This document shows, one piece after another, positions 901-52,542 of a stretch of DNA of 64,000 nucleotides. Position 1 is the first letter of the stretch; each line of letters begins with the position of its first letter. The translations under genes and the position numbers were made by a program. The notes beneath the pieces are model-generated. The model made no database searches. It was not told the origin of the DNA and worked only from the letters and a program-made list of their open reading frames with translations. Location of the stretch: positions 7,587 through 71,586 of the IMG/VR virus record IMGVR_UViG_3300032007_000075. One strand, written 5' to 3'. The stretch is from a virus (lineage: Duplodnaviria; Caudoviricetes).

Positions 901-1116
901 TATCTTTGCAGTGACAAAATTCCAAGTGCGGCACGAAAGATGAAGCCGCCGCAACGAGCGGCTATTTTTGTGCCCTATCATTAAGGGGAGAGTATAGACT
1001 CTCATAAATAAACGACTGCACCGCGTGGGGTAGCGGACAACGCCCCCAAAGGTATTCGCACTTGGAAGCCTTGTCAGCGCGTAGTGCAGTTTTTTAATGA
1101 CTAAAATTTCAAGTGT
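901..1116 (+). ncRNA. Promoter plus C4/CI-like structured antisense leader, copy 1
   Basis: TATCTTTG at 901; structured element 1011-1095; its segment CGCACTTGGAA (1057-1067) is complementary to TTCCAAGTGCG (920-930) and nearly so to TTTCAAGTGT (1107-1116) just before the ATG; homologous to 11526-11730. Confidence 0.7.
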
Positions 1117-1566: not shown

Positions 1567-1651
1567 TATATAAAGGTAAATAGGATGATTATCTCTCACC
1601 GCATCAGCCGCCGCAAGCGCAAACTTGAACTGATTAAAGAGGACTTGAAGA

Positions 1652-2893
1652 ATGAGATTAGTCTATAAGTTTTACATACCGCACACCGAGCAGATTGACT
1701 CCCTTTGCAGGGTGGCAAACAACCTATACAACCAGGCTCTGTATCTGTTCCGCCAGCGTCTCGATGCCGAAGGCACGTGGACGTGGTACAACGACATGGA
1801 CAAACTCATGAAGGAAGTTACCAACCTTGAAGGAACTTGCAATTACAAGCTGCTCAAATCGCAGTGTTCACAGCAGGTGCTACGGGTGCTCGACAAGAAC
1901 ATGAAGGCTTACTGCAAGTCCATTAAGGACTGGAAGAAACATCCCGAGAAATACAAGGGTATGCCGCAGATGCCGAACTACCGCAAGCGCGGCGGCATGT
2001 TCAACCTGTACTATACCAATCAGTCTGCCATCATCAGGGATGGAAAAATCAAGCTGTCAAAAGGCTTGTACGTCAGCATACCGCAGTGGGAGAAGTACGG
2101 TGATAGCATTATCAGGTTTAACCAGGTACGTCTCATCCCGAACAATCAGAACATCAAGGTTGAGATTGTCTACGAGAAGGAAGCCAAGAAAGCGGACGTT
2201 GACAAGAGCAAGTGCGCTGCCATCGACCTCGGACTTGACAACCTCGCCACAATGGTCACTGCCGAAGGCTGCGTCATCTTCAGCGGACGTTATCTCAAAT
2301 CCTATAACAACTATTTCAACAAGAACCTTGCACGCCTGCAGTCCGTCAAGGACGGGCAGGGTATGAAGCGAAGCACTAACAGAATCAAGCGTATGTACGA
2401 CAAGCGAGACCGCTACTTTGAGGACGTGTTCCACAAGGTCAGCCGCCAGATTGTTGACATGCTTGTAGAGAAGAAGATTGGCACGCTGGCTGTAGGCTAC
2501 AATGCCGGATGGAAACAGGAATCCGACATGGGCAAAAGGAACAACCAGAAGTTTGTCCAGATGCCTTTTGCGAGGCTGGCGGGCTATCTTCGCTACAAGT
2601 GCGAGATGGTGGGCATCGACTTTGTGGTGCATGAGGAAAGTTACACATCCAAGTGTGACGCGCTGGCTTTCGAGGACATTGGCAAGCATGAGAAATACGC
2701 TGGCAGACGGATAAGGCGCGGCCTGTTCCGCTCGTCAACAGGCAAACTCATCAATGCCGATCAGAATGGAGCTCTCAATATTATGAGAAAAGTAGTCGGC
2801 GATTCTTACGTCCGTAAGATAGTCGATAGCGGGCACTCGTTATGTCCTATACGATACCGCAACCCGTTCCAACGGATTGCAGGAAGTATGTAA
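1652..2893 (+). CDS. tnpB: IS200/IS605-family RNA-guided endonuclease TnpB
   Basis: N-terminal LCRVANNLYNQALY; RuvC-I AIDLGLDNLA, RuvC-II VHEESYTSK, RuvC-III INADQNGALNI; no complete Zn finger. Confidence 0.93.
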   Translation: MRLVYKFYIPHTEQIDSLCRVANNLYNQALYLFRQRLDAEGTWTWYNDMDKLMKEVTNLEGTCNYKLLKSQCSQQVLRVLDKNMKAYCKSIKDWKKHPEKYKGMPQMPNYRKRGGMFNLYYTNQSAIIRDGKIKLSKGLYVSIPQWEKYGDSIIRFNQVRLIPNNQNIKVEIVYEKEAKKADVDKSKCAAIDLGLDNLATMVTAEGCVIFSGRYLKSYNNYFNKNLARLQSVKDGQGMKRSTNRIKRMYDKRDRYFEDVFHKVSRQIVDMLVEKKIGTLAVGYNAGWKQESDMGKRNNQKFVQMPFARLAGYLRYKCEMVGIDFVVHEESYTSKCDALAFEDIGKHEKYAGRRIRRGLFRSSTGKLINADQNGALNIMRKVVGDSYVRKIVDSGHSLCPIRYRNPFQRIAGSM

Positions 2894-6000: not shown

Positions 6001-8823
6001 CTTCTGCTTCAGCACCTTCACAACCATCGCGTAGGCTTTGGCGAGGTCGATAGCACCGTCGATTTCGATGCCGAGATAGTCGAGGTACTGCTGATAGTCA
6101 CTCTTCAGCAGGTCTTTCAGCAGTTGGTTACGCTTTTCGAGCGAATAGTTGCTGTCGTCGAGTGCCCGCTTGTAGGACTCCAACGGAGCGGCCACGGTGT
6201 CGATGGCCTCCTTCGACTTGGCGAGTTGCATATCCAGTTCGGCCTGTCGCTTCTGTGCCTTCTCGGCGGCTTCGGCGGCGGCATTCATGTGATCTATATA
6301 TAAGGATATGCCGCCGACCACGGCTGCAATACCTGCCAACACCCAGTTCGAGTTCATCACGGCTTGCAGGGTAGCGGTGGCGGTAGTGGCCGCACGGATA
6401 GACACTATCAAGGCGGCGAACGAATTGACCATCATGCGGATGCCACCGAAGATACCGAACCACGTGAGCATCTTTATCAGGAACGGCAGCATCTTAATGA
6501 GCGTGATGACTGCAGACGTGATACCCTCGATGCCGTTGTGGAAGGCTTTCATCGAACCGTCGCTCTGTGTGAGCGCCTTGCTGACCTCGTACCACTGCTC
6601 GGCGAGTTGCTTCACCATATCCACACCTTCTGGGTTGGTGAATGCCTTGGCCCAAAGATTTTGGGCACGCTCCATGAGGGCATTGGCGGTCTCGTTCTGG
6701 ATCATATACTCGTTGATGACTGCCGTACCGTCCTTGAATGACTTGGTAGATGTTTCGAGGTGTTTCTTCAGGATATCCACGCGGTCGGCCATTGTGGTCA
6801 TCACGGCCACCAGACGGGCACCGTCGGAACCGAGGTCTTTGAAGATGCCGTCGAGGGCGTTCATATTCCCCCTCTTGTTCATCGCCTCGAAGATGTCAAC
6901 AATACTCTTGATGGTCTGCCCTTTGGCGAAGTTTTCATTGATAGAACCCTGCGCCAGTCCGAGCGACTTCTCAATCATATTGTGACCTTTCTGGATAGAT
7001 GTGAAAAGTTTGTTGAAGGCCGTTGCAGCCACTTCGGGCATCAGTCCCATTGCGTCTGCAGCAGAGCCGATGGCCAGCAGTTCGTCAGCCGTGACACGCG
7101 ACACGTTGGCCAAACCCATGAGTCGTTTTGAGAACTCCACGATGTTCTTACCTGTGGCTGTAGAGGTGGTCGAAAGCATGAAGATAGCACTGGCGGCTTT
7201 CTGCATAGATTGCTCTACGCCATACTTATCCATCAGTCCCATGACCTCAGTCAGCTTGGCCAGTGCGGGCAGCGCCTCTTCGCCCAGGTCTTCGCCAAGG
7301 CTCATTTGAACCATTTCCGCCGAGCGCACAAATCCAGTCAGGGCTTCCACGCCGCCATGTTCCTGCACACCAAGTTTGGCACCAGCGTAAGCCAATTTGT
7401 TGAGTGTCTCGATAGAATTACGGGTATCAATCTTTGTGATATTTGTATAGAGTTTGTTAATCTCCTGGGACGTCAAACCGCTGACTTTTCTGATATCGGC
7501 CAAACTGTCGCTCAATTTGAGATTGGACTTATAGACCTCCATCACTTTCGACTTGATCATGTTGAAGGCACCGAACACACCGACGTAGGCGGCGATATTC
7601 TTGATGGCTGTGCCGAAAGTGCCGCCCTGCTGCTGGATAGCACCCGTATTACGACGGATCTGGGCTTCGACGGCCTTCATGTCCTGTTTCAGTTTCTGGG
7701 CGGTGGCACTCTGCGTGGAGTTCAGGCTTTGCAGTTTCTGTTGCAACTGTGTGAGTGCGTTTTGTAGTTGCGCATTAGTGGCGGTTTTCAAGAACTGCTT
7801 GTCAATCTTGATTTCGGCCTGCATGGCGGCAGTTACCTTGTCGATACGGTTTTTCAGGAGTGCCATCTGCTGAGCGGCGGCACGCGCCTTGGCATCGTTG
7901 GTACCGGCGAACTGCTGCTGGCGGGCTTGCAAGGTTCTGTAAGCGGCCTGCAACTTCTCCAACTCGACGGCCTGACCGCGATACACGGCACGGACGGTGC
8001 CCGCAGCTTCCTGCGTGGCTTGCAGTTGCTTGGCGGCTTGGTCGGCCTTTTTCTCGTTGTCGGTCAGCAGTTTCAGTTGCTCGTTGACGGCTTTCAGTCT
8101 TTGCTCGTAACCAGCCGCTTTACCCTCGTAACCCTTCACACCACTGGTGGCTGCGAGTGCCGACATCAGGGCGGTACGCTCTGCGCCAAGTTGCTGGGCG
8201 TTCATCTTCGCCACGGGCATTGCTCCAGTCGGAGCGGTGCGCACGGCCATTGCAGCCTGATATTGTGCCTGCATCTGTTCTAATGACCGACGCCACTTGT
8301 TGCCGATGTTCGGATTGTCGAGCTGTGCTTTGATGGCAGCAAGTCCCTGCTTCAGCTTATCCATCGACGTGTTGTCGAGGTTCTTCAACTGCGTCTGAGC
8401 CTGACGGAACGACATCGTAAGGCCGCTGGTGCCAGAAATCTGATCTTTGATGCGCTTGATATCATCTATCAACTTCTGACGGCCAGGCGATTTCTCGCTC
8501 ATCTTGCCAAGTGCAGTAGTGGCCTCACGAAGAGCCGTTTTCAAGTCCTTCAACTTCGAGCCTGACAGATCTTTCAGCACTTGTCCGTACTTCACCATCG
8601 ACTGCTGGTTGTGGATGATGGCCGAGTCGATAGCCGTGGCCTGTTTGGTAAGGTCGCGGAAGTCCTTCTTCATCTGCTCCGTCCAGCCGCTCTTCTCACC
8701 CTTTGCGTTCAGGTCTTTCAGCTTCTGCTTGACGTCTGCCAGCTGTCGGTTCAGGTATTCAAACACGTCCTTCACCGCCTTGGCGTTACAGGTAATGACG
8801 AGTTCAGATTTTCTTGTTGCCAT
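3034..8823 (-). CDS. Phage tail tape measure protein
   Basis: 1929 aa, helical Ala/Gln/Lys-rich; TP901-like core (LADIRKVSGLT...ETLNKLAYAGAKLG); hydrophobic segments; located in the tail module. Confidence 0.92.
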   Translation of the reverse strand: MATRKSELVITCNAKAVKDVFEYLNRQLADVKQKLKDLNAKGEKSGWTEQMKKDFRDLTKQATAIDSAIIHNQQSMVKYGQVLKDLSGSKLKDLKTALREATTALGKMSEKSPGRQKLIDDIKRIKDQISGTSGLTMSFRQAQTQLKNLDNTSMDKLKQGLAAIKAQLDNPNIGNKWRRSLEQMQAQYQAAMAVRTAPTGAMPVAKMNAQQLGAERTALMSALAATSGVKGYEGKAAGYEQRLKAVNEQLKLLTDNEKKADQAAKQLQATQEAAGTVRAVYRGQAVELEKLQAAYRTLQARQQQFAGTNDAKARAAAQQMALLKNRIDKVTAAMQAEIKIDKQFLKTATNAQLQNALTQLQQKLQSLNSTQSATAQKLKQDMKAVEAQIRRNTGAIQQQGGTFGTAIKNIAAYVGVFGAFNMIKSKVMEVYKSNLKLSDSLADIRKVSGLTSQEINKLYTNITKIDTRNSIETLNKLAYAGAKLGVQEHGGVEALTGFVRSAEMVQMSLGEDLGEEALPALAKLTEVMGLMDKYGVEQSMQKAASAIFMLSTTSTATGKNIVEFSKRLMGLANVSRVTADELLAIGSAADAMGLMPEVAATAFNKLFTSIQKGHNMIEKSLGLAQGSINENFAKGQTIKSIVDIFEAMNKRGNMNALDGIFKDLGSDGARLVAVMTTMADRVDILKKHLETSTKSFKDGTAVINEYMIQNETANALMERAQNLWAKAFTNPEGVDMVKQLAEQWYEVSKALTQSDGSMKAFHNGIEGITSAVITLIKMLPFLIKMLTWFGIFGGIRMMVNSFAALIVSIRAATTATATLQAVMNSNWVLAGIAAVVGGISLYIDHMNAAAEAAEKAQKRQAELDMQLAKSKEAIDTVAAPLESYKRALDDSNYSLEKRNQLLKDLLKSDYQQYLDYLGIEIDGAIDLAKAYAMVVKVLKQKKAYEEREQYRDEVNQNNKIDRMRAGMQFGQTAKALGSNVDAEWLRQRHNLPVEDIMASVVRSAGGSVKTMDFGRGAKGNAYYDKAGNLIEATVLERLRKNIREYSTSRNTENRLNREVDELYKNEVGDFDMEKFQEEALKGQLKRKGQLDNLKPDKDAEKAAKKAQAEHKQAIRKDLQDAKQESDAIIAKIEEWYRLQETVVTGFAADGKWTQEQANQMNQQLEMAKNEALANARLAISGRDTQTWEKTKQNIQLLMFDTGEWSQELFQQMMDVSMASIRQNLSRIDKEGWQYGITTSSLKDGLDKNAAGNRRKVQELRNKTAKEVEKALLQFNYFEQAAKAYEDRLTQLGLLTETAEQAADRIRQATGSLKAGGKSEAQLTQERSNARRQAGQQFLTQSAQQNYTVNYENTADLNKWLMDFTGAQAGMGANGFEFQFSGWAEAFKDEFNKWLKDSETYKADIQAFYLSLIDFDKQYFDSVKNYRQKMNENFQQRWDTSGKGQEYADASSQISLEGRRQKMTGADQGTNFGERAGFLNIETDPEVQASMLRMAQLQEELEMFKMVNEQKKLEGAELLAFNEELAERQLAIDEAEMAMQESLMNHINEHISKLEQWTQPIEQFGADVGDAMGKALFESENMAEGMQNALKSLVKSWGESTISIIKDLMMQKLKQKLIGKAMVKEEKATQGEMTDTDEESGKERLNMTSVVEQGIAGITQTMGQQVLATKQTQDTQEMTQEGTKAQGTVMAGIAEMAAKVLGTLGPFGAPLIAVFTALLMGLLSAALSALGGGSKSGGNENAAKTKVKLKSGMLTYDEGNVQTVVGDDGRVYRAREQRSLPSGVSMVTEPIATRVNGQAALVGERGPEIVIGRKTTRAIQMNRPDLLRDLAMIDRGITTRKVRAFDEGNLSDLASAIRPADDASTSSTTDNGQSERDQLLMQTMQQMLPLMQGMTHLLQNPVAPNINMYGENGLHKKIKQADQFMKRYSD

Positions 8824-8851: not shown

Positions 8852-9394
8852 TTATACAATAGAAAGGTTCAGTTGCTGTCCCTCGAAGGTTTCAAGCACT
8901 TGGAAATCCAGCTTGGCATCGTAGAACCGCTGGACGTAATTTTCGAGACGCGTCAGCGTATGGTTGATTTCAGGACGTATGCCAGGACGGTGGCTGGCTC
9001 CCTTCGACGGTGCCCAGAGCGTGTAGCGGCTCTTGTAGCGGACGTTCTTTCCACGTTCAACATCCTCGGCGTGACGGCCTGCACCCACACCGATGTCAAC
9101 GTACTGCATGTAGTCGTTGAACTTGAAGCCCATCGTAACCATGCCCGTCTTTTCGTTGGCCTCGTACACCGTACCCTCGAACGACTTGATGCCCTCGCCC
9201 TTTGAGTACCAGCCACCATGCTGACGGCGATACTCGTTCACTTCAGGATAGGCCGAATAGGGTGCGTATGGAAACACCCTCTGCGTCATCATATTGATTT
9301 CGAGCTGCGATAGCGTCTGCTCCTTGAACAGGTTGGCGATATACCGCAATGGGTAAAGTGCCTTCCAGTCGCGTTTGCTGATTCCTTGTGCCAT
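8852..9394 (-). CDS. Putative neck/tail-completion protein
   Basis: 180-aa ORF directly upstream of the tape measure gene; function from position only. Confidence 0.55.
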   Translation of the reverse strand: MAQGISKRDWKALYPLRYIANLFKEQTLSQLEINMMTQRVFPYAPYSAYPEVNEYRRQHGGWYSKGEGIKSFEGTVYEANEKTGMVTMGFKFNDYMQYVDIGVGAGRHAEDVERGKNVRYKSRYTLWAPSKGASHRPGIRPEINHTLTRLENYVQRFYDAKLDFQVLETFEGQQLNLSIV

Positions 9395-9988: not shown

Positions 9989-10014
9989 ATCTGTGTCGTT
10001 TTTGATTTCTATGC

Positions 10015-10049
10015 CAAAGATACAGCCGCGCCGCTGGCGAAATGGGACA
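10015..10049 (-). promoter_or_regulatory. Phage-type promoter TGTCCCA-N20-TATCTTTG
   Basis: Exact motif and spacing. Confidence 0.65.
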
Positions 10050-10065
10050 AAGCGGTTTCCAGAGC

Positions 10066-10100
10066 AAAAAAAAGACCGCCACGACGGGCGGTCTCTCCTT
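10066..10100. terminator. Intrinsic terminator downstream of the endonuclease gene
   Basis: AAAAAAAGACCGCC-ACGAC-GGGCGGTCTCTCCTTTT hairpin with A/T tracts. Confidence 0.7.
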
Positions 10101-10122
10101 TTTATATATTATATAGGGAATC

Positions 10123-11235
10123 TCAGATGTTTAGTTCGTGTTCCAGGATTTCTTCAATTCTGTTAAATTCGGTATATGGGATTTCGAGCAGGCGAATCCC
10201 CTTCTGACGACAATACTCCCTCAAGGCAGCGTCTCTGCGTTTGCGATGGAGTAGTCCATCCTCACCACCCCACGCATGTTTACCTATATCATAATGTTGT
10301 TTTCCATTATATTCAATAATAATACCATTGTCTAACTGAAAATCAACAACAAATACTTTCTTTTCATTTGGCGAAATAGGCGTATGAATAGTTTTCTGCC
10401 ATGTGTAATGGATATTATGACGGTCGAGCCAAAGCATAACAGCCGCTTCACCTCTTGACATTTTACATTTAGGACAACCTGTTTTCAAACCGATATGGTC
10501 CCAGGGATTCGTTTTAAACGGGCCATGTTTTTTGCAGATAACAATAATAGGTGTTCTGCGGTTAACGTATTTGGTCTGGGAGTAGTCGTAACGGTCTCCG
10601 TGGACTTCCCGAGCCCTTTTTACTATATCTTCGGTTGTCAGGCCCTTCCCCGCACAATATTTACACCCATAACCTTGAAGGATAAGCACAGGTTTCTGCT
10701 TGTATTCCTTACCGCAGATATTGCATTTTACGCTAACTGGCGTTAAAATATCTTTGTAAACTGACTTCTTAAAATCATAATTGTCACCGTGTATCTTCTT
10801 GGCCCTGCAAAGAAAAGTGGACTGATCCATCAACTTGTTAGTTCTGCGGCGCTCCAATCCGCACTTGGGACAGGCGTACCCTTGCAGAAAAAGTCCAGGC
10901 TTCTTCTTAAAATCTCCATGAATAGGGCAAGTTATTATTACGTCCGATTTCTCGCTCTTATAATTTGTTTTAGAGTAGTCATAAAAGTCCCCGTATTTTT
11001 TTATTGCCTTGGCAATGAAGTCCTCAGTGGTGTCGAAGGAATAGCATTTGCAACCTCCATTGCCTTTCAGGTGGTTAAGAGGAAGTATCTCGTGTACCTT
11101 TCCGCAACGATTACATTTGACTTTGACTTTCTCGGCACAAACGGTGTATCTCGTTAGAGAATAGTCGTATTTGTCACCGTGCATAGCCTTCGCTCTGCGA
11201 ATAAATTCCTCGTTGGTAATTCTGTGGTTTGGCAT
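10123..11235 (-). CDS. Putative homing-type endonuclease: four Zn-ribbon (DUF723-like) repeats plus a C-terminal PD-(D/E)XK-like domain
   Basis: Four repeats F..(R/K)A...HGD.YDYS...Y......V...C..(H/C)G......P...L.G.GC..C; C-terminal VDFQLDNGIIIEYNGKQHY; AT-rich relative to its flanks. Confidence 0.8.
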   Translation of the reverse strand: MPNHRITNEEFIRRAKAMHGDKYDYSLTRYTVCAEKVKVKCNRCGKVHEILPLNHLKGNGGCKCYSFDTTEDFIAKAIKKYGDFYDYSKTNYKSEKSDVIITCPIHGDFKKKPGLFLQGYACPKCGLERRRTNKLMDQSTFLCRAKKIHGDNYDFKKSVYKDILTPVSVKCNICGKEYKQKPVLILQGYGCKYCAGKGLTTEDIVKRAREVHGDRYDYSQTKYVNRRTPIIVICKKHGPFKTNPWDHIGLKTGCPKCKMSRGEAAVMLWLDRHNIHYTWQKTIHTPISPNEKKVFVVDFQLDNGIIIEYNGKQHYDIGKHAWGGEDGLLHRKRRDAALREYCRQKGIRLLEIPYTEFNRIEEILEHELNI

Positions 11236-11246
11236 ATCTCTTCCTT

Positions 11247-11393
11247 TTAATAACTTCTATATCTGTTGCGTGAATAATACGGCGCGTGAGCGTTTACTTT
11301 TACTACGGCCTTGCGGCGGTTGCGCGGCACGACGGCCTTAGAGAGCAGTGCCATCAGCTCCTGCATCTCGGGATCAATGTCGGAGCGGTTCAT
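11247..11393 (-). CDS. Small basic ORF (48 aa, MNRSDIDPEMQELMALL...)
   Basis: Hand-translated; its ATG overlaps the upstream TGA; lies between the C4-like leader and the endonuclease. Confidence 0.5.
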   Translation of the reverse strand: MNRSDIDPEMQELMALLSKAVVPRNRRKAVVKVNAHAPYYSRNRYRSY

Positions 11394-11524
11394 AAGGCAG
11401 CGTCGTTAGGGTTAATCACTTGCGGGGCTGTCAGGCGGCTGAGCACCCTGCGGATGGACTGGCGGCGACGGGCTATCTCCATGAAGATAGGGTAGGTCGC
11501 ACGGACATTAGTTGTTGGCTTCAT
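11390..11524 (-). CDS. Small ORF (44 aa, MKPTTNVRATYPIF...); icd/kil-like position
   Basis: ATG at 11524 immediately after the antisense target AAATCAATTCAG. Confidence 0.55.
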   Translation of the reverse strand: MKPTTNVRATYPIFMEIARRRQSIRRVLSRLTAPQVINPNDAAL

Positions 11525-11525
11525 A

Positions 11526-11730
11526 CTGAATTGATTTTTTGACAATAAATAAACGGCACTACGCGCTGTCAAGGTTCAATTCAACTGAGACCTTTGGGGA
11601 CGTTATCCGTTACCCCACGCGGTGCCGTTTGGCTTGATGTATTCCTTTCACTTACGGGCACAAAAAATGCCGCTCGTCGCGGCTCGTTACATCTTCGTGC
11701 CGCTGAATTGATTTAGACGTTGCAAAGATA
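11526..11730 (-). ncRNA. Promoter plus C4/CI-like structured antisense leader, copy 2
   Basis: TATCTTTG at 11730-11723; structured element 11630-11551 homologous to 1011-1095 with a compensatory closing stem; 12-nt target repeated at 11703-11714 and 11526-11537. Confidence 0.7.
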
Positions 11731-11885
11731 GGCATAATCTGCGAAACGTGCAAATTTCCTATATACATTTTATAATATATTAAGATAAAATCGTTCAAGG
11801 TTCCAAATTGGAACATTGAAAAAAAGCGGGCAATCTCACGACTGCCCACCCTCGATTATGTTAGAAATGAAAGCTGAATCACTCG

Positions 11886-12050
11886 TCAATACGGTTTGTC
11901 GATGGTGTTCATATTGCGGCTCCACTCGCTCTGCAGGTCAATCTCCTAGATGCGGAAGAAGCGCTTGTCCTTCGACTTTACGGAGGGGTTGTGACTGATG
12001 GGGCGGTAGATGGTCGCCCAGTATTCCAAAACTTTGTCGAGTTCAAACAT
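11886..12050 (-). pseudogene. Truncated paralog of the 9398-9988 gene
   Basis: MFELDKVLEYWATIYRPISHNPSVKSKDKRFFRI*EIDLQSEWSRN aligns with MFRLDNVLEKWAEVYEPLKHDPAAKAKHKTFFRISMIDGQSYFIRN; in-frame TAG at 11946-11948, TGA at 11886-11888. Confidence 0.75.
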
Positions 12051-12062
12051 ACCTTTATATAT

Positions 12063-13172
12063 TTATAGTAACGGGGCGGTGACGAGCATAGCCATGCCGG
12101 GGCCGTTGAGGGAGTCGTGGTCGCAGCCGCAGGGTGACGGGGTGTCGGTGGCGGGGACTTCGGGCGCGGGCTTGACATAGAGCGGACTGTGCTCATAGAC
12201 TTCGGCCTGGTCGCCGAGGTCGTGGAGGATATCATCCTGATGCTGTTGGCAGTACTCGCGGAACTGGCCGAGCAGGCGCACACCCTCGTCGTGGGCTGCG
12301 ATACGGCGGTCTTTATCCACCTTGATGACCTTGGTGCGTCCTTCTAGCAGTGTGGCCTCGATCTTGCGGAGCTTATGCAGCAATCTGCGGGTGGTAGCAG
12401 GTATCGCGGAATCATCAGCCAATACTTTCGGCTTACTCGACACAGCGGCGGTGGCGTCGCGCTTGGTGCCGCCTTTAAGTTGCATGCCCACAAGGTATTC
12501 GCAGAAGTCTTCGCCAATCGCAGGAGCAATTTGTTCCTCCTGGATGAAGTGCAGGTCGGGCAGCATCTGGATGAATTTCTCGCGGCTGTCGTAGATATTC
12601 AGGTATTCCTGCAGGACGGTGGCGGACGGGATCAGCAACTGTGCGGCGAGGTAGAAGTAGCGGCTGCTGCGCCAGAACTTGCAGATCTCGAACAACTCCT
12701 CCGTATCTTCCTTTGCATCCTCGGCCTCGGGGCACTGTGCCGTCCATTGCTCCAGCGTGTAGAGCAGGCGGTTGAGGGCGCTGTGGGCCTCCTTCTGATA
12801 CGACTGCTTGGCGGCGTTGATGCTGTCGCGGTCGGCAGTCTTGTAGTCCTCGGCGCTGGCGAAGTTGATGCCGGAGCCGTTGATCGAGATGGCCTGCTGG
12901 TCGATGGCTCTCGACATGGCGTCAAAGGCGACGCACCGCTGGGCGATAAGCAGGAGTTTGTTGTAATACCCCGCCTGACGGTCGTCGATGGTGGTCATCG
13001 CGGGTTTGTTCTGGTCGTACCAGTCGCACAGTTTGTCATACAGCGGCTGTCCGAGTGGCTGGAGCAGGAACTCGTGCTCGGAGTTGTCGATATAGCCCAC
13101 AAATGCGTCGATGTGGTCGATGGCGTGGCTTGGGAAGCAGAGGCGAAGCTCTTCAATGGTGGTGATTATCAT
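12063..13172 (-). CDS. Putative head-tail adaptor/structural protein (DUF6712-like)
   Basis: 369 aa, follows the portal gene; N-terminus MIITTIEELRLCFPSH resembles Bacteroidales phage DUF6712 proteins (from recall). Confidence 0.6.
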   Translation of the reverse strand: MIITTIEELRLCFPSHAIDHIDAFVGYIDNSEHEFLLQPLGQPLYDKLCDWYDQNKPAMTTIDDRQAGYYNKLLLIAQRCVAFDAMSRAIDQQAISINGSGINFASAEDYKTADRDSINAAKQSYQKEAHSALNRLLYTLEQWTAQCPEAEDAKEDTEELFEICKFWRSSRYFYLAAQLLIPSATVLQEYLNIYDSREKFIQMLPDLHFIQEEQIAPAIGEDFCEYLVGMQLKGGTKRDATAAVSSKPKVLADDSAIPATTRRLLHKLRKIEATLLEGRTKVIKVDKDRRIAAHDEGVRLLGQFREYCQQHQDDILHDLGDQAEVYEHSPLYVKPAPEVPATDTPSPCGCDHDSLNGPGMAMLVTAPLL

Positions 13173-13199
13173 AATCTTTTGTTCTTATGTTCTTTTTAT

Positions 13200-15113
13200 T
13201 TAATTATTCTCGGCCTCGGTGATGCCGGTCTTGCTGTTATCGAGCGTGGTGAGGACTTCTTTCTTAATCCGCCAACAGAGATGCGGGTCCCACTGGTTGT
13301 ACTGGCTCACGACATCGAGGGTGTTCAGCACCTGACTCTGCATGGTACTCATGTTGACTTGTTTCAGCAGGTAGCGTTCGCGCAGGTCGGTGCCGCCGCT
13401 GCGGACGGTCGTGCCAGGCGTGTTTCCGATGAGCGTCGAGTCGGTGCCCCACGTGAAGAGGATGATGCTCGAAATCTCGGCGAGTTCCTCCTTGTTGGCC
13501 TCGGCGGTCTCTTTCGAGTTCTCCTGAATCTCGACGATTTCCCATGACTTGTAAATTTTGCCGTCCGAATCTTTAAAATTATAGGCCACGAGCGGTTCAC
13601 CCATGTTGTCGCGGTTCTTTAGGAACGAGTTGATCTCGGAGATGATTTCGTTGAAGCGGGCCTTCTTCTTATCGTCGGTATCGTCGCCGCGCTGGTAGTA
13701 GAGGCGCTGCAGATACTCGTCGCTGAGATACAGGATGCGTCCGATGACGTTGGCGTTGTCGCGGCGCTTCTTGCGGTCGGAGATAAGTATCGAGGCATAG
13801 GTGTAGACGTCGCCGCTGAAGATGGAGTACCACGCCGGCACGGGGTAGTAGGGATGTCCGTACTCATTATACGCCACGGGCATGGCTACATGAGTGGGTC
13901 GGTCGTCTTTCTTAGTTCGAGCGGTTCGGGCTTTTCGAGTAATCCCTTCCAGGTCTGTGGTTGGCGACTGATAGGAGAGGGAGGGAAGAGCGTCGATCTT
14001 GAAATCACTGTCCTTCGTTGGGACGGTCGATTCTGGGGATGAAATCCACTGGTTGCTGATGTAAACATGTTCTATCTGGTTTTGGTCATTCATTTGTTCG
14101 AGTCGCATGGTCTTCGCGTTGCGCCATTTGAGTCCCGTGATTTTCGGTTTCCACATCGAGGCGGGAACGGGCTGCATCTCGATCTCGCCGTTGTCCTTCT
14201 TACGACCCGTCTCCACGAGGTAAGTCTGCTGGAGCTCGAACTCGGGGAAGCAGATGTTGTACTGCAGCATGTCTGAATAGAGGTGCTGGAAGGTGTCGAG
14301 CAGGTTGTTGTTCTTCAGGAACGCCTGCACCTGAGCATTGGTCTCCTCCCACACGGCGAGGTCTTTGCGAAGTTGATCTATCTGCTCGTTGATGTCGTCG
14401 CGCATCTGCTCGGCTGCGGACTCCTTTTTGACAGAAGGACGTAAGGACATATTTTCCTGCTGCAGATTATTTTGTTCTTTTGTTCTTATGTCTAAATCGT
14501 CGTCGCCATCGGCGAGTTCGGGATGCTCCTGTTCGAGCTTCACCAGCTGCAGTTGCAGGTCACGGATCATTCCGCGAAGCAGCGTGCCGGCATCATCGTA
14601 CTTAATCGTCTTCTCGGTGATGTTGCCACCGACGTACTGCGTATAGGCATACATCGGTTTCGGTCCCATACCCGTACAGAGGTCGATGTTGAACTTTAGG
14701 GCTGCGGCGGTGTAGGGTAGGAGGGAGCAGAAGAAAGATACCACGTTGGGAATCTTGTTGCCCCAGCCCCAGGTGATGTAACTTCCCTTGTGGCCGTTTG
14801 CCGCCGTCACTGGCTGAGCGCAACCGCTGCTCACGTGGAGCAGGGGGAATACGCCCTTGCCCTGTCGTCCATCCTCGTCACAGGCCAGTCGCTCGTTGAT
14901 ATACTCGGCGTAGTCGTTTCGCGCACCGCCGTTTCCACCACCGAGGGCGTTGGGCAGTGCCACGAAGCCTTCCTTGCGCAGTCGCTCGGCCTCCTTATAG
15001 AACTGATCGGGCCCCTCGACCGTCACGATGGGGTTGTAGGGTTTTCCCATCTCCATGCCGTCGGGAACGGGCAGCGAGGCGGACTTCTTTGGATTTGTTT
15101 TCTTTCTAACCAT
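13200..15113 (-). CDS. Probable portal protein
   Basis: 637 aa directly after the large terminase; YITWGWGNKIP and HPYYPVPAW motifs typical of Bacteroidales phage portals. Confidence 0.7.
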   Translation of the reverse strand: MVRKKTNPKKSASLPVPDGMEMGKPYNPIVTVEGPDQFYKEAERLRKEGFVALPNALGGGNGGARNDYAEYINERLACDEDGRQGKGVFPLLHVSSGCAQPVTAANGHKGSYITWGWGNKIPNVVSFFCSLLPYTAAALKFNIDLCTGMGPKPMYAYTQYVGGNITEKTIKYDDAGTLLRGMIRDLQLQLVKLEQEHPELADGDDDLDIRTKEQNNLQQENMSLRPSVKKESAAEQMRDDINEQIDQLRKDLAVWEETNAQVQAFLKNNNLLDTFQHLYSDMLQYNICFPEFELQQTYLVETGRKKDNGEIEMQPVPASMWKPKITGLKWRNAKTMRLEQMNDQNQIEHVYISNQWISSPESTVPTKDSDFKIDALPSLSYQSPTTDLEGITRKARTARTKKDDRPTHVAMPVAYNEYGHPYYPVPAWYSIFSGDVYTYASILISDRKKRRDNANVIGRILYLSDEYLQRLYYQRGDDTDDKKKARFNEIISEINSFLKNRDNMGEPLVAYNFKDSDGKIYKSWEIVEIQENSKETAEANKEELAEISSIILFTWGTDSTLIGNTPGTTVRSGGTDLRERYLLKQVNMSTMQSQVLNTLDVVSQYNQWDPHLCWRIKKEVLTTLDNSKTGITEAENN

Positions 15114-52323: not shown

Positions 52324-52542
52324 TTAAAGTTCTTTCCATGCAGTCCATGAATTGTCATTGCTACGCCTATACCTGATTCCACCTGAGTAACCAAACAGTT
52401 GAATTATGAATGCCGTTGAATTGAAAGTGACCAATACTCCATATTTTTCTTCAGATGATAACAGAAGAGTATAAATGCCACTTTGCTTTAAAGCCTCTGC
52501 ATTAGGATTATCATATTGACCTCTATACCTAAAAACGCCCAG
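52324..52542 (-). other. Silent tip cassette 15 (LGVFRYRGQYD...WTAWKEL)
   Basis: Hand-translated; knob-like. Confidence 0.9.

Follow-up and report, generated by a model that had tools for sequence, protein, structure and literature searches.

The question raised by positions 11,247 to 11,730 of the DNA stretch considered here is what a structured RNA of the C4/CI type might control at a locus where it precedes two very short open reading frames (ORFs) and a nuclease gene, and what is signified by the presence of more than one such RNA in a single phage. The stretch, henceforth called the window, comprises 64,000 nucleotides (nt) of the Caudoviricetes virus record IMGVR_UViG_3300032007_000075 (positions 7,587 to 71,586); it contains two copies of the RNA, copy 1 and copy 2, of which the latter is our main subject. 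We propose that the region of copy 2 is probably a self-contained unit, in which the RNA, a member of the c4-2 family, pairs with a target called b2/a2 and thereby blocks the initiation of translation of the first small ORF (orf44), lowering the expression of the second small ORF (orf48) and of the nuclease according to the logic known from the c4 RNA of phage P1.

The identity of the RNA can be stated firmly. When the whole window is scanned against Rfam, exactly two matches exceed the gathering score, both of them to c4-2 (RF02944), a member of clan CL00128 together with P1 c4, in agreement with the original prediction of a C4/CI-like RNA. Copy 2 (window positions 11629-11550, minus strand) is matched over the full model (1-79) with 42.2 bits, and copy 1 (1014-1093, plus strand) with 44.9 bits, the gathering score being 41. 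Only c4-2 is reported at the locus, but overlapping matches within a clan are suppressed by the scan, so a weaker match to C4 (RF01695) would be hidden. The minimum-energy fold of copy 2 coincides with the family consensus of a closing stem, a GGGGUA..CGGA..AACG..CCCC hairpin, a variable hairpin and a U-rich 3' end, and the three-way junction is common to both copies, with z-scores against shuffled sequences of -4.4 for copy 2 and -3.1 for copy 1. In an alignment of 19 sequences, compensatory changes are found at 19 of the 20 pairs of the consensus structure, and the model built from this alignment (R1) assigns 86.8 bits to copy 2. According to Rfam and R1, the RNA gene extends over 11547-11630 (minus strand) and consists of the closing stem P1, the conserved hairpin P2, the variable hairpin P3, a 4-nt junction and the U-rich 3' tail, while copy 1, with the loop GCACUUGGAA and the junction UUGUCA, extends over 1013-1096 (plus strand). 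Thus, the two copies share a scaffold, as had been claimed: both pass the c4-2 gathering score and adopt the same fold. As for the accompanying claim of a compensated closing stem, a single pair is truly compensated (U-A in the first copy versus G-C in the second), and one further change is one-sided.

Copy 2 is therefore a genuine member of a known, computer-predicted RNA family, and the RNA class itself is not new. Weinberg et al. 2017 (PMC5737381) present c4-2 as a likely distant homologue of a previously described RNA; a literature search found no functional paper on c4-2. At the RNA level copy 2 is no different from the Rfam family, as it has the same junction, conserved hairpin, U-rich tail and phage setting, the latter being evident from the virus record itself and from the genes for tape-measure protein, protease and helicase in the window. 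A longer variant of c4-2 (96 nt, with an extended P3; 49.8 bits with R1) occurs on a small contig (L151:35-130, plus strand) that also carries a normal copy, 1.3 kb further downstream.

The coordinates given for the antisense segment and its targets, all on the minus strand, proved to be exact: the variable segment GTTGAATTG lies at 11585-11577, the proposed target AAATCAATTCAG at 11714-11703 and again at 11537-11526, and the ATG at 11524, and the ORFs are also where they had been placed. The complementarity of this 12-mer to the loop is real, but its AAA is an unpaired spacer that takes no part in the duplex; the actual loop-target duplex is TCAATTCAG(C/U) with (G)UUGAAUUGA, i.e. 10 base pairs (bp), one of them G-U. 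The match exceeds chance: the pattern TCAATTCARY occurs four times in the window versus 0.81 expected, and the two target segments (a1 and a2) together with the loop account for three of the four occurrences. What had been overlooked is a second pairing segment, for the junction sequence UUGACA is complementary to UGUCAA in the targets. The pairing of copy 2 is thus predicted to be bipartite, as in P1 c4.

In terms of features on the minus strand, the antisense segment a' (GUUGAAUUGA, 11576-11585) lies in the P3 loop, and the segment b' (UUGACAG, 11566-11572) comprises the 3' base of P3 and the single-stranded junction and pairs with UUGUCAA of the downstream target. Duplex prediction places the upstream target at 11702-11718, at the predicted 5' end of the transcript, with b1 (GTCTAA, 11718-11713) followed by a1 (TCAATTCAGC, 11711-11702); b1/a1 is unpaired in the predicted leader fold. 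The downstream target (11525-11545) consists of b2 (TTGTCAA, 11545-11539), a spacer of four A residues and a2 (TCAATTCAGT, 11534-11525), which ends 1 nt before the ATG of orf44 at 11524. The cognate duplex energies of copy 2 are -16.1 kcal/mol for b1/a1 and -22.0 kcal/mol for b2/a2. The same two-part arrangement recurs in every related instance: in the target, the 3' part is paired with the P3 loop (a') and the 5' part with b', made up of the 3' base of P3 and the 4-nt junction, and an A-rich spacer of 2-5 nt lies between the two parts. Two further 10-nt matches in the window, TTCCAAGTGC at 8896-8905 (minus strand, inside a gene for a 180-aa protein) to the copy 1 target and TCAATTCAAC at 52415-52424 (minus strand, in a cassette array) to the complement of the copy 2 loop, have neither a b segment nor an A-rich context and are probably due to chance.

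If the pairing matters, the antisense segments and their targets are expected to change together, and this is what we observe. Our sample comprised 38 IMG/VR loci with the conserved hairpin, the extra copies found in the same phage genomes, and the orthologous modules reached via orf44 and orf48; the duplexes were compared for 21 instances representing 20 specificities, with short target windows. An initial version of this test, with target windows of 125 nt and 45 nt, was noisy, as GC-rich hairpins gave strong non-cognate energies, and it was replaced by a longest-helix test and then by the short windows. All 21 instances have the b/a layout at the upstream site, and 17 have it at the downstream site as well (14 with a clean target window were scored). 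The mean energy of the a1/b1 duplex is -22.3 kcal/mol for cognate and -10.5 kcal/mol (sd 3.9) for non-cognate combinations, and that of the a2/b2 duplex -18.1 versus -9.7 kcal/mol; none of 20000 random reassignments reached the cognate mean. The b'/b combination is UUGAC/GUCAA in most loci, UUGUCA/UGACAA in copy 1, UUUAGC/GCUAAA in the L008 group, UAGGA/UCCUA in L003 and L034, AAGCA/UGCUU in L055, UGAAC/GUUCA in L058, and UUAGAC/GUCUAA in a third copy of this genome, which had been overlooked and lies just outside the window. Within each genome of the group the codes differ, and at a1 no other combination is as good as the cognate one in any row or column of the comparison. For copies 1 and 2, the cross energies range from -6 to -9 kcal/mol and those of the cognate pairs from -16 to -26 kcal/mol, in support of the idea that this phage carries two non-cross-reacting specificities. 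The original prediction had also named homologous loci without covariation of segment and targets as the observation to look for against it; the homologous loci do covary. As far as comparison of sequences can tell, the two-part complementarity is upheld by coordinated changes across many related and orthologous modules.

The orthologous modules illustrate these changes most directly. In two related phages (L140 and L141), which have the same promoter and the same inner hairpin of the leader as the window, about 190 nt of orf44 and orf48 exhibit no nucleotide difference from it, and yet all three elements, the loop as well as a1 and a2, have changed to GCGCAUUUGA/UCAAAUGCGC. The cargo of orf44, orf48 and nuclease is also encoded at another eight metagenome loci whose heads are readable, and all modules taken together use three codes: TCAATTCAG in this window, L146, L149 and L150; TCAAATGCGC in L140, L141, L144, L145, L151 and L154; and TCTTAGAAGC in L153. 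Without exception, a2 either overlaps or contains the start codon or ends 0-3 nt upstream of it. The conserved hairpin P2 is likewise mixed and matched, e.g. in L150, and the same code is also found with different cargo, as in L153 and L052 or in L010 and L036.

The elements required for separate expression of the module can be recognized around it. A candidate promoter of the Bacteroidota type (11723-11754, minus strand) has a -33 TTTG element (11754-11751), a 20-nt spacer and the -7 element TATCTTTG (11730-11723); the pattern corresponds to TTTG/TAnnTTTG, the Bacteroides promoter consensus, and the same -7 box lies upstream of nearly all related modules. Further upstream, a terminator-like hairpin GGGCA...TGCCC with a T run (11819-11847, minus strand) ends the unit of a DUF6712 gene; it was recognized in the sequence and is unlisted in a consensus scan, its loop being longer than 8 nt. 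The leader folds into a terminator-like hairpin, T1 (11657-11701, minus strand), with the outer stem GGCAC.../...GUGCC around a GC hairpin at 11683-11669, followed by U6; the terminator scan lists the inner hairpin (11683-11669) with ATTTTTTG, and among loci the sequence of the inner stem varies while its pairing is kept. A scan of the leader (11480-11780) against Rfam, evaluated by E-value, revealed no IsrK, seqA or c4-a1b1, and returned c4-2 and one spurious miRNA match only. At its far end the module is closed by a strong intrinsic terminator (10066-10094, minus strand; stem 10073-10094, then a T7 run), identified by inspection and by the terminator scan, and a TATCTTTG box at 10015-10049 lies ahead of the next gene. 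Because it has its own promoter, terminators on both sides and such a box before the next gene, the module is, by these predicted signals, an autonomous transcription unit, about 1.7 kb long. The T1 of copy 1 reads TATTTTTG on its 3' side (971-978, plus strand), which fits the -7 pattern TAnnTTTG; an internal promoter there is unlikely, as no TTTG is suitably spaced to serve as a -33 element and the TA is missing from copy 2.

The cargo of the unit consists of three genes on the minus strand. The first, orf44 (11390-11524), encodes a basic 44-aa protein; the second, orf48 (11247-11393), encodes a 48-aa protein and its start overlaps the stop of orf44 (ATGA), so that translational coupling is predicted, while the downstream target overlaps the initiation region of orf44. 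The third (10123-11235) encodes a 370-aa nuclease in which DUF723/DUF4379-like treble-clef zinc-finger repeats are combined with a C-terminal nuclease region, as identified with PHROGs and Pfam; it matches phrog_559 'HNH endonuclease' with an E-value of 6.7e-88 and the Pfam family DUF723 with 7e-5, and its best relatives elsewhere are at most 41% identical. Homologues of orf44 form five clusters (74-98% identity, 40-46 aa) and always occur together with orf48 and a nuclease gene. Those of orf48 form 27 clusters, 23 of them with 48 aa and the others with 43-47 aa, and their pairwise differences are commonest at third codon positions. Comparison of orf44 and orf48 with Pfam, PHROGs and the ESM Atlas revealed no known family. 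The label "icd/kil-like" given to these ORFs is thus apt as far as position goes, as they are the small first ORFs just after the RNA and a2 lies beside the ATG of orf44, but it describes position only and has no counterpart in a family match.

As to the organism in which the unit would operate, the phage is one of the bovine gut (rumen), the stretch is present in gut metagenomes of bovine, goat and other animal origin in 14 studies, and full-length matches to c4-2 of this subtype were found in two rumen Prevotella/Prevotellaceae genome bins, which fits the promoter type. The host is probably Prevotella or another member of the Bacteroidota. In a pattern scan of genome collections, 17 of 19 matches were to the short hairpin only and are attributable to chance. 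A sheep-gut RNA library contains one 375-nt contig of a relative, corresponding to about 11703-11338 and including a1, T1, a variant c4-2, a2, orf44 and the start of orf48; it is compatible with read-through transcription, which it does not prove, as assembled contigs display neither ends nor strand.

In the mechanism that we favor, the promoter with its -7 box at 11730-11723 would start an RNA that contains b1/a1, T1, c4-2 (about 84 nt), b2/a2, orf44, orf48, the homing-type nuclease gene and the terminator, in this order. The c4-2 RNA would be released by partial termination at the U-rich tail, by processing, or by both; with the U-rich tail placed after the closing stem, most transcripts would end as c4-2, and the repressor would be in built-in excess over its target. 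The free RNA would then occupy b2/a2, roughly positions -1 to -21 with respect to the start codon, i.e. the presumed A-rich ribosome-loading zone, and block the loading of the 30S subunit. In Bacteroidota, the start of translation relies on A-rich leaders rather than on Shine-Dalgarno pairing. The block of orf44 initiation would in turn reduce the synthesis of orf48 and the nuclease via coupling and polarity. More weakly, the likeness of the leader to seqA in P4 and to IsrK in Gifsy-1 suggests that b1/a1 with T1 might act as a short leader RNA or as a decoy in cis that competes for the loop and sets the threshold of repression. With a specificity of its own for each copy, the cassettes could be regulated independently of one another. 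We favor translational repression in trans because a2 is fixed at the AUG and because distinct codes are needed within one genome.

The same pairing might act mainly on transcription instead, as in phage P4, causing premature termination and less read-through to orf44, orf48 and the nuclease gene. In P4 the CI RNA pairs with seqA upstream and seqC downstream, and premature termination follows (PMC4825925). The geometry of our locus is reminiscent of this arrangement, as both targets adjoin terminator-like structures (the 3' end of a1 overlaps the base of the T1 stem, and b2 starts 1 nt after the U-rich tail) and the copies without a2 retain a1. However, control of termination requires no such placing of a2 at the start codon as is found in every orthologous module. 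Besides, pairing with a1 would open about 2 bp of the outer stem of T1 and leave the inner terminator hairpin intact, and the predicted structures contain no alternative antiterminator fold of the leader. We consider this explanation unlikely. Less likely again is a switch operating purely in cis, where in one and the same transcript the loop pairs either with a1, leaving a2 free and translation on, or with a2, turning it off, depending on processing or on the kinetics of folding. It would make good sense of the location of all three elements on one RNA within 200 nt, of the transcription of a1 ahead of a2 and its greater strength as a partner in most loci (the means of -22.3 versus -18.1 kcal/mol given above), and of the loop-a2 contacts in the centroid fold of the whole leader. 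On the other hand, c4-2 has the compact stable fold and the U-rich tail of a free small RNA, the founder of the clan acts in trans, differing specificities in one genome are needed only if the RNAs diffuse to other transcripts, and the copies without a2 have no target in cis to switch. Finally, a1 and a2 are direct repeats on either side of T1 and c4-2, which is suggestive of an insertion-site duplication, and one could imagine that they are features of the DNA (operators for a protein, or target-site duplications) with an incidental complementarity to the loop and no RNA-RNA function at all. From operators or target-site duplications, however, no complementarity to a hairpin loop would be expected; in 20 classes a change of the loop goes with changes of a1 and a2, covariation with the targets extends to the separate b' junction, and G-U pairs are tolerated only in the RNA sense, which makes this last explanation highly improbable.

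Several observations weigh against translational repression by a specific c4-2 RNA, our preferred reading, or restrict it. The Rfam score of copy 2 exceeds the threshold by just 1.2 bits. Its upstream b1 (GUCUAA) fits its own b' over about 3-4 bp only, and at its a1 the duplex with its own RNA is just 2.3 kcal/mol better than that with the RNA of the third copy; with the a2 of copy 2, the RNA of L140 attains -18.0 kcal/mol, so that by this crude measure the specificity is not absolute. Both T1 and the U-rich tail are considered terminator-like by structure alone, in what is taken to be a Bacteroidota host, and the 375-nt sheep-gut contig, which is the sole signal from an RNA library, could represent contaminating DNA. 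Moreover, four related copies (L055, L056, L058, L059) keep a1 and are devoid of a2, and because of these the pairing with a2 cannot be the sole role of the c4-2 RNA.

The comparison can be extended to the other copies and their neighbors. This phage group has 2-4 copies of c4-2 per genome, and the present virus has three. The third (G000:3137-3220, minus strand, equal to L142:3137-3220; 76.4 bits with R1) belongs to the same virus record, and its loop GCUUAACGA and its junction UUAGAC each match its own a1/b1. Behind it come first a 173-aa paralogue of the 149-aa gene that follows copy 1 and then a 625-aa ORF of the TnpB type, the second TnpB gene; copy 1 and the third copy share a duplicated segment (81% identity) that starts with T1, includes the whole first gene and does not reach the TnpB genes. 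Behind copy 1, an ORF of about 27 codons (1586-1669, plus strand) also separates the 149-aa gene from the TnpB gene, whose start it overlaps.

We surveyed the neighbors in five records (G000, G001, G002, G003 and G007), searching them for GIY-YIG, HNH, TnpB, DUF4379 and DUF723 domains. A c4-2 on the same strand precedes 14 of the 15 nuclease genes by no more than about 3 kb, and 11 of the 13 c4-2 copies have such a gene behind them, although these downstream stretches make up less than 4% of the stranded sequence; with a small sample and partly related cassettes, these figures are a lead rather than a settled result. This pattern is broken by one HNH gene in G002, by one copy before a radical-SAM and methyltransferase pair, and by one before a KilAC antirepressor-type gene. 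In smaller phages (L004, L008, L010 and L022), c4-2 lies directly upstream of Bro-N/ANT antirepressor genes, an arrangement shared with c4 in P1. A general tie between c4-2 and this particular HNH family can be ruled out, as none of 79 loci of other phages that encode relatives of the 370-aa nuclease contains c4-2. Of the copies without a downstream target, two (L055:1499-1582, with L055:1595-2743, and L059:1502-1585, minus strand, with L059:172-1491, minus strand) have a1/b1 and no a2/b2, and in both the start codon of a TnpB gene (HTH_OrfB_IS605, OrfB_IS605 and TNB domains) follows within about 15 nt. Another c4-2 heads a radical-SAM gene (L056:670-1461, minus strand), and the next ORF (L056:2-658, minus strand) starts with a motif resembling that of cytosine-5 methyltransferases (FCGAGG); here the cargo is DNA modification instead of a nuclease.

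The module itself appears in a block of tail genes, in the order DUF6712 gene, module, genes for 196-aa and 180-aa proteins, and the gene for a 1929-aa tape-measure protein (PhageMin_Tail). In one related phage (L046), 72 nt separate the DUF6712 gene from the 196-aa gene and the module is missing, and the empty site (L046:7185-7250) contains short tandem repeats of the CTCGAAAT type; in another (L045), the same place is occupied by an unrelated small membrane ORF. In L140, L144, L145, L150, L153 and L154 the module stands behind the 196-aa-type gene and not in front of it. Directly upstream of the module in the window there is a 159-nt remnant (11892-12050, minus strand) of the 5' end of a gene similar to that for the 196-aa protein (p196), with an in-frame stop and 79% amino acid identity to L140:1456-1614; it looks like a recombination scar from the arrival of the module. 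The module is accessory and, judging from the remnant just upstream and from its position behind that type of gene in other loci, has moved or recombined. No joint that skips the whole module was seen in three DNA sequencing runs, and a blastn search with positions 10000-14000 against deposited phage genomes gave no match.

Among characterized systems, the closest counterpart is the immI locus of P1 and P7 (a1b1-c4-a2b2-icd-ant; RF01695, CL00128), which has the same target-RNA-target order on one transcript, with a' and b' pairing with both targets, and likewise a downstream target that covers the translation start of a small first ORF, which is coupled to the gene behind it (in our locus, by prediction). 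The mature c4 RNA is cut by RNase P from a longer transcript in P1 and P7. Between P1 and P7 the specificity of c4 shifts by a coordinated change of a' and its targets (PMC5320573; the mechanism of P1 c4 is also described in PMC8546580). Our locus differs in its cargo (two micro-ORFs and a nuclease gene with no antirepressor, versus icd-ant), in that an A-rich leader, in accord with the Bacteroidota host, would be occluded rather than a ribosome-binding site, in the terminator-like U tract at the end of the RNA, and in the presence of three or more c4-2 copies in one phage genome. The P4 CI RNA with seqA and seqC, and the Gifsy-1 isrK locus (IsrK - STnc1160 - orf45 - anrP; PMC4825925), share the layout of a leader complementary to a downstream CI/c4-like RNA, a Rho-independent terminator (here recognized by structure alone) and a read-through mRNA. 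The first gene of the isrK locus is likewise small, with about 45 codons, and its translation controls the gene behind it there. In Gifsy-1 the short leader RNA activates translation, whereas for our leader such a role is suggested only by analogy; the cargo there is an antirepressor and not a nuclease, and the copy 2 leader has no sequence or Rfam match to IsrK, seqA or c4-a1b1. The C4-like small RNAs (sRNAs) of Acinetobacter baumannii (PMC5320573) also occur in many copies per genome that differ mainly in the a' loop; they form a chromosomal family with unassigned targets, in contrast to the c4-2 copies described here, each with its own cis-linked target pair and cargo.

A comparison of another kind is with RNA-level control of mobile DNA. 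Transposases of mobile elements are subject to antisense control by IS10 RNA-OUT and by IS200 art200, and the homing endonuclease I-TevI of phage T4 to translational control. The module would likewise be an RNA-level brake on the translation start of a selfish enzyme that cuts or moves DNA, but RNA-OUT and art200 are cis-antisense RNAs of the opposite strand, whereas c4-2 is a structured RNA of the same strand with short two-part seed pairing. With respect to these precedents, the distinct sets of c4-2 within one genome, their near-exclusive link to mobile nuclease genes in this phage group, and the shuffling of codes and cargo appear to be new.

Since 2017, c4-2 has been known only as a computer prediction; the locus described here and its relatives provide it with a full, testable anatomy of promoter, two-part targets, leader terminator and regulated ORFs, and with natural swap experiments, where one cargo occurs with three codes. 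An antisense RNA that acts over an A-rich leader would be a useful model in a phylum that mostly lacks initiation led by the Shine-Dalgarno sequence, and it would supply non-cross-reacting RNA regulators for engineering in Bacteroides and Prevotella. If the link of c4-2 with cassettes for homing endonucleases and TnpB is borne out by a full survey, selfish nucleases of phages would be found under RNA-based control, with a bearing on the spread of cassettes and on their competition in co-infection. It is tempting to speculate, although we can do so only tentatively, that in rumen phages of the Prevotella type c4-2 was taken over from the control of antirepressors and turned into a set of addressable, mutually distinct antisense regulators that head selfish nuclease cassettes, and that the code may serve as a label of immunity or incompatibility. 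If this is true, the code would decide whether a cassette is silenced upon co-infection by related phages, much as the specificity of c4 does for P1 and P7.

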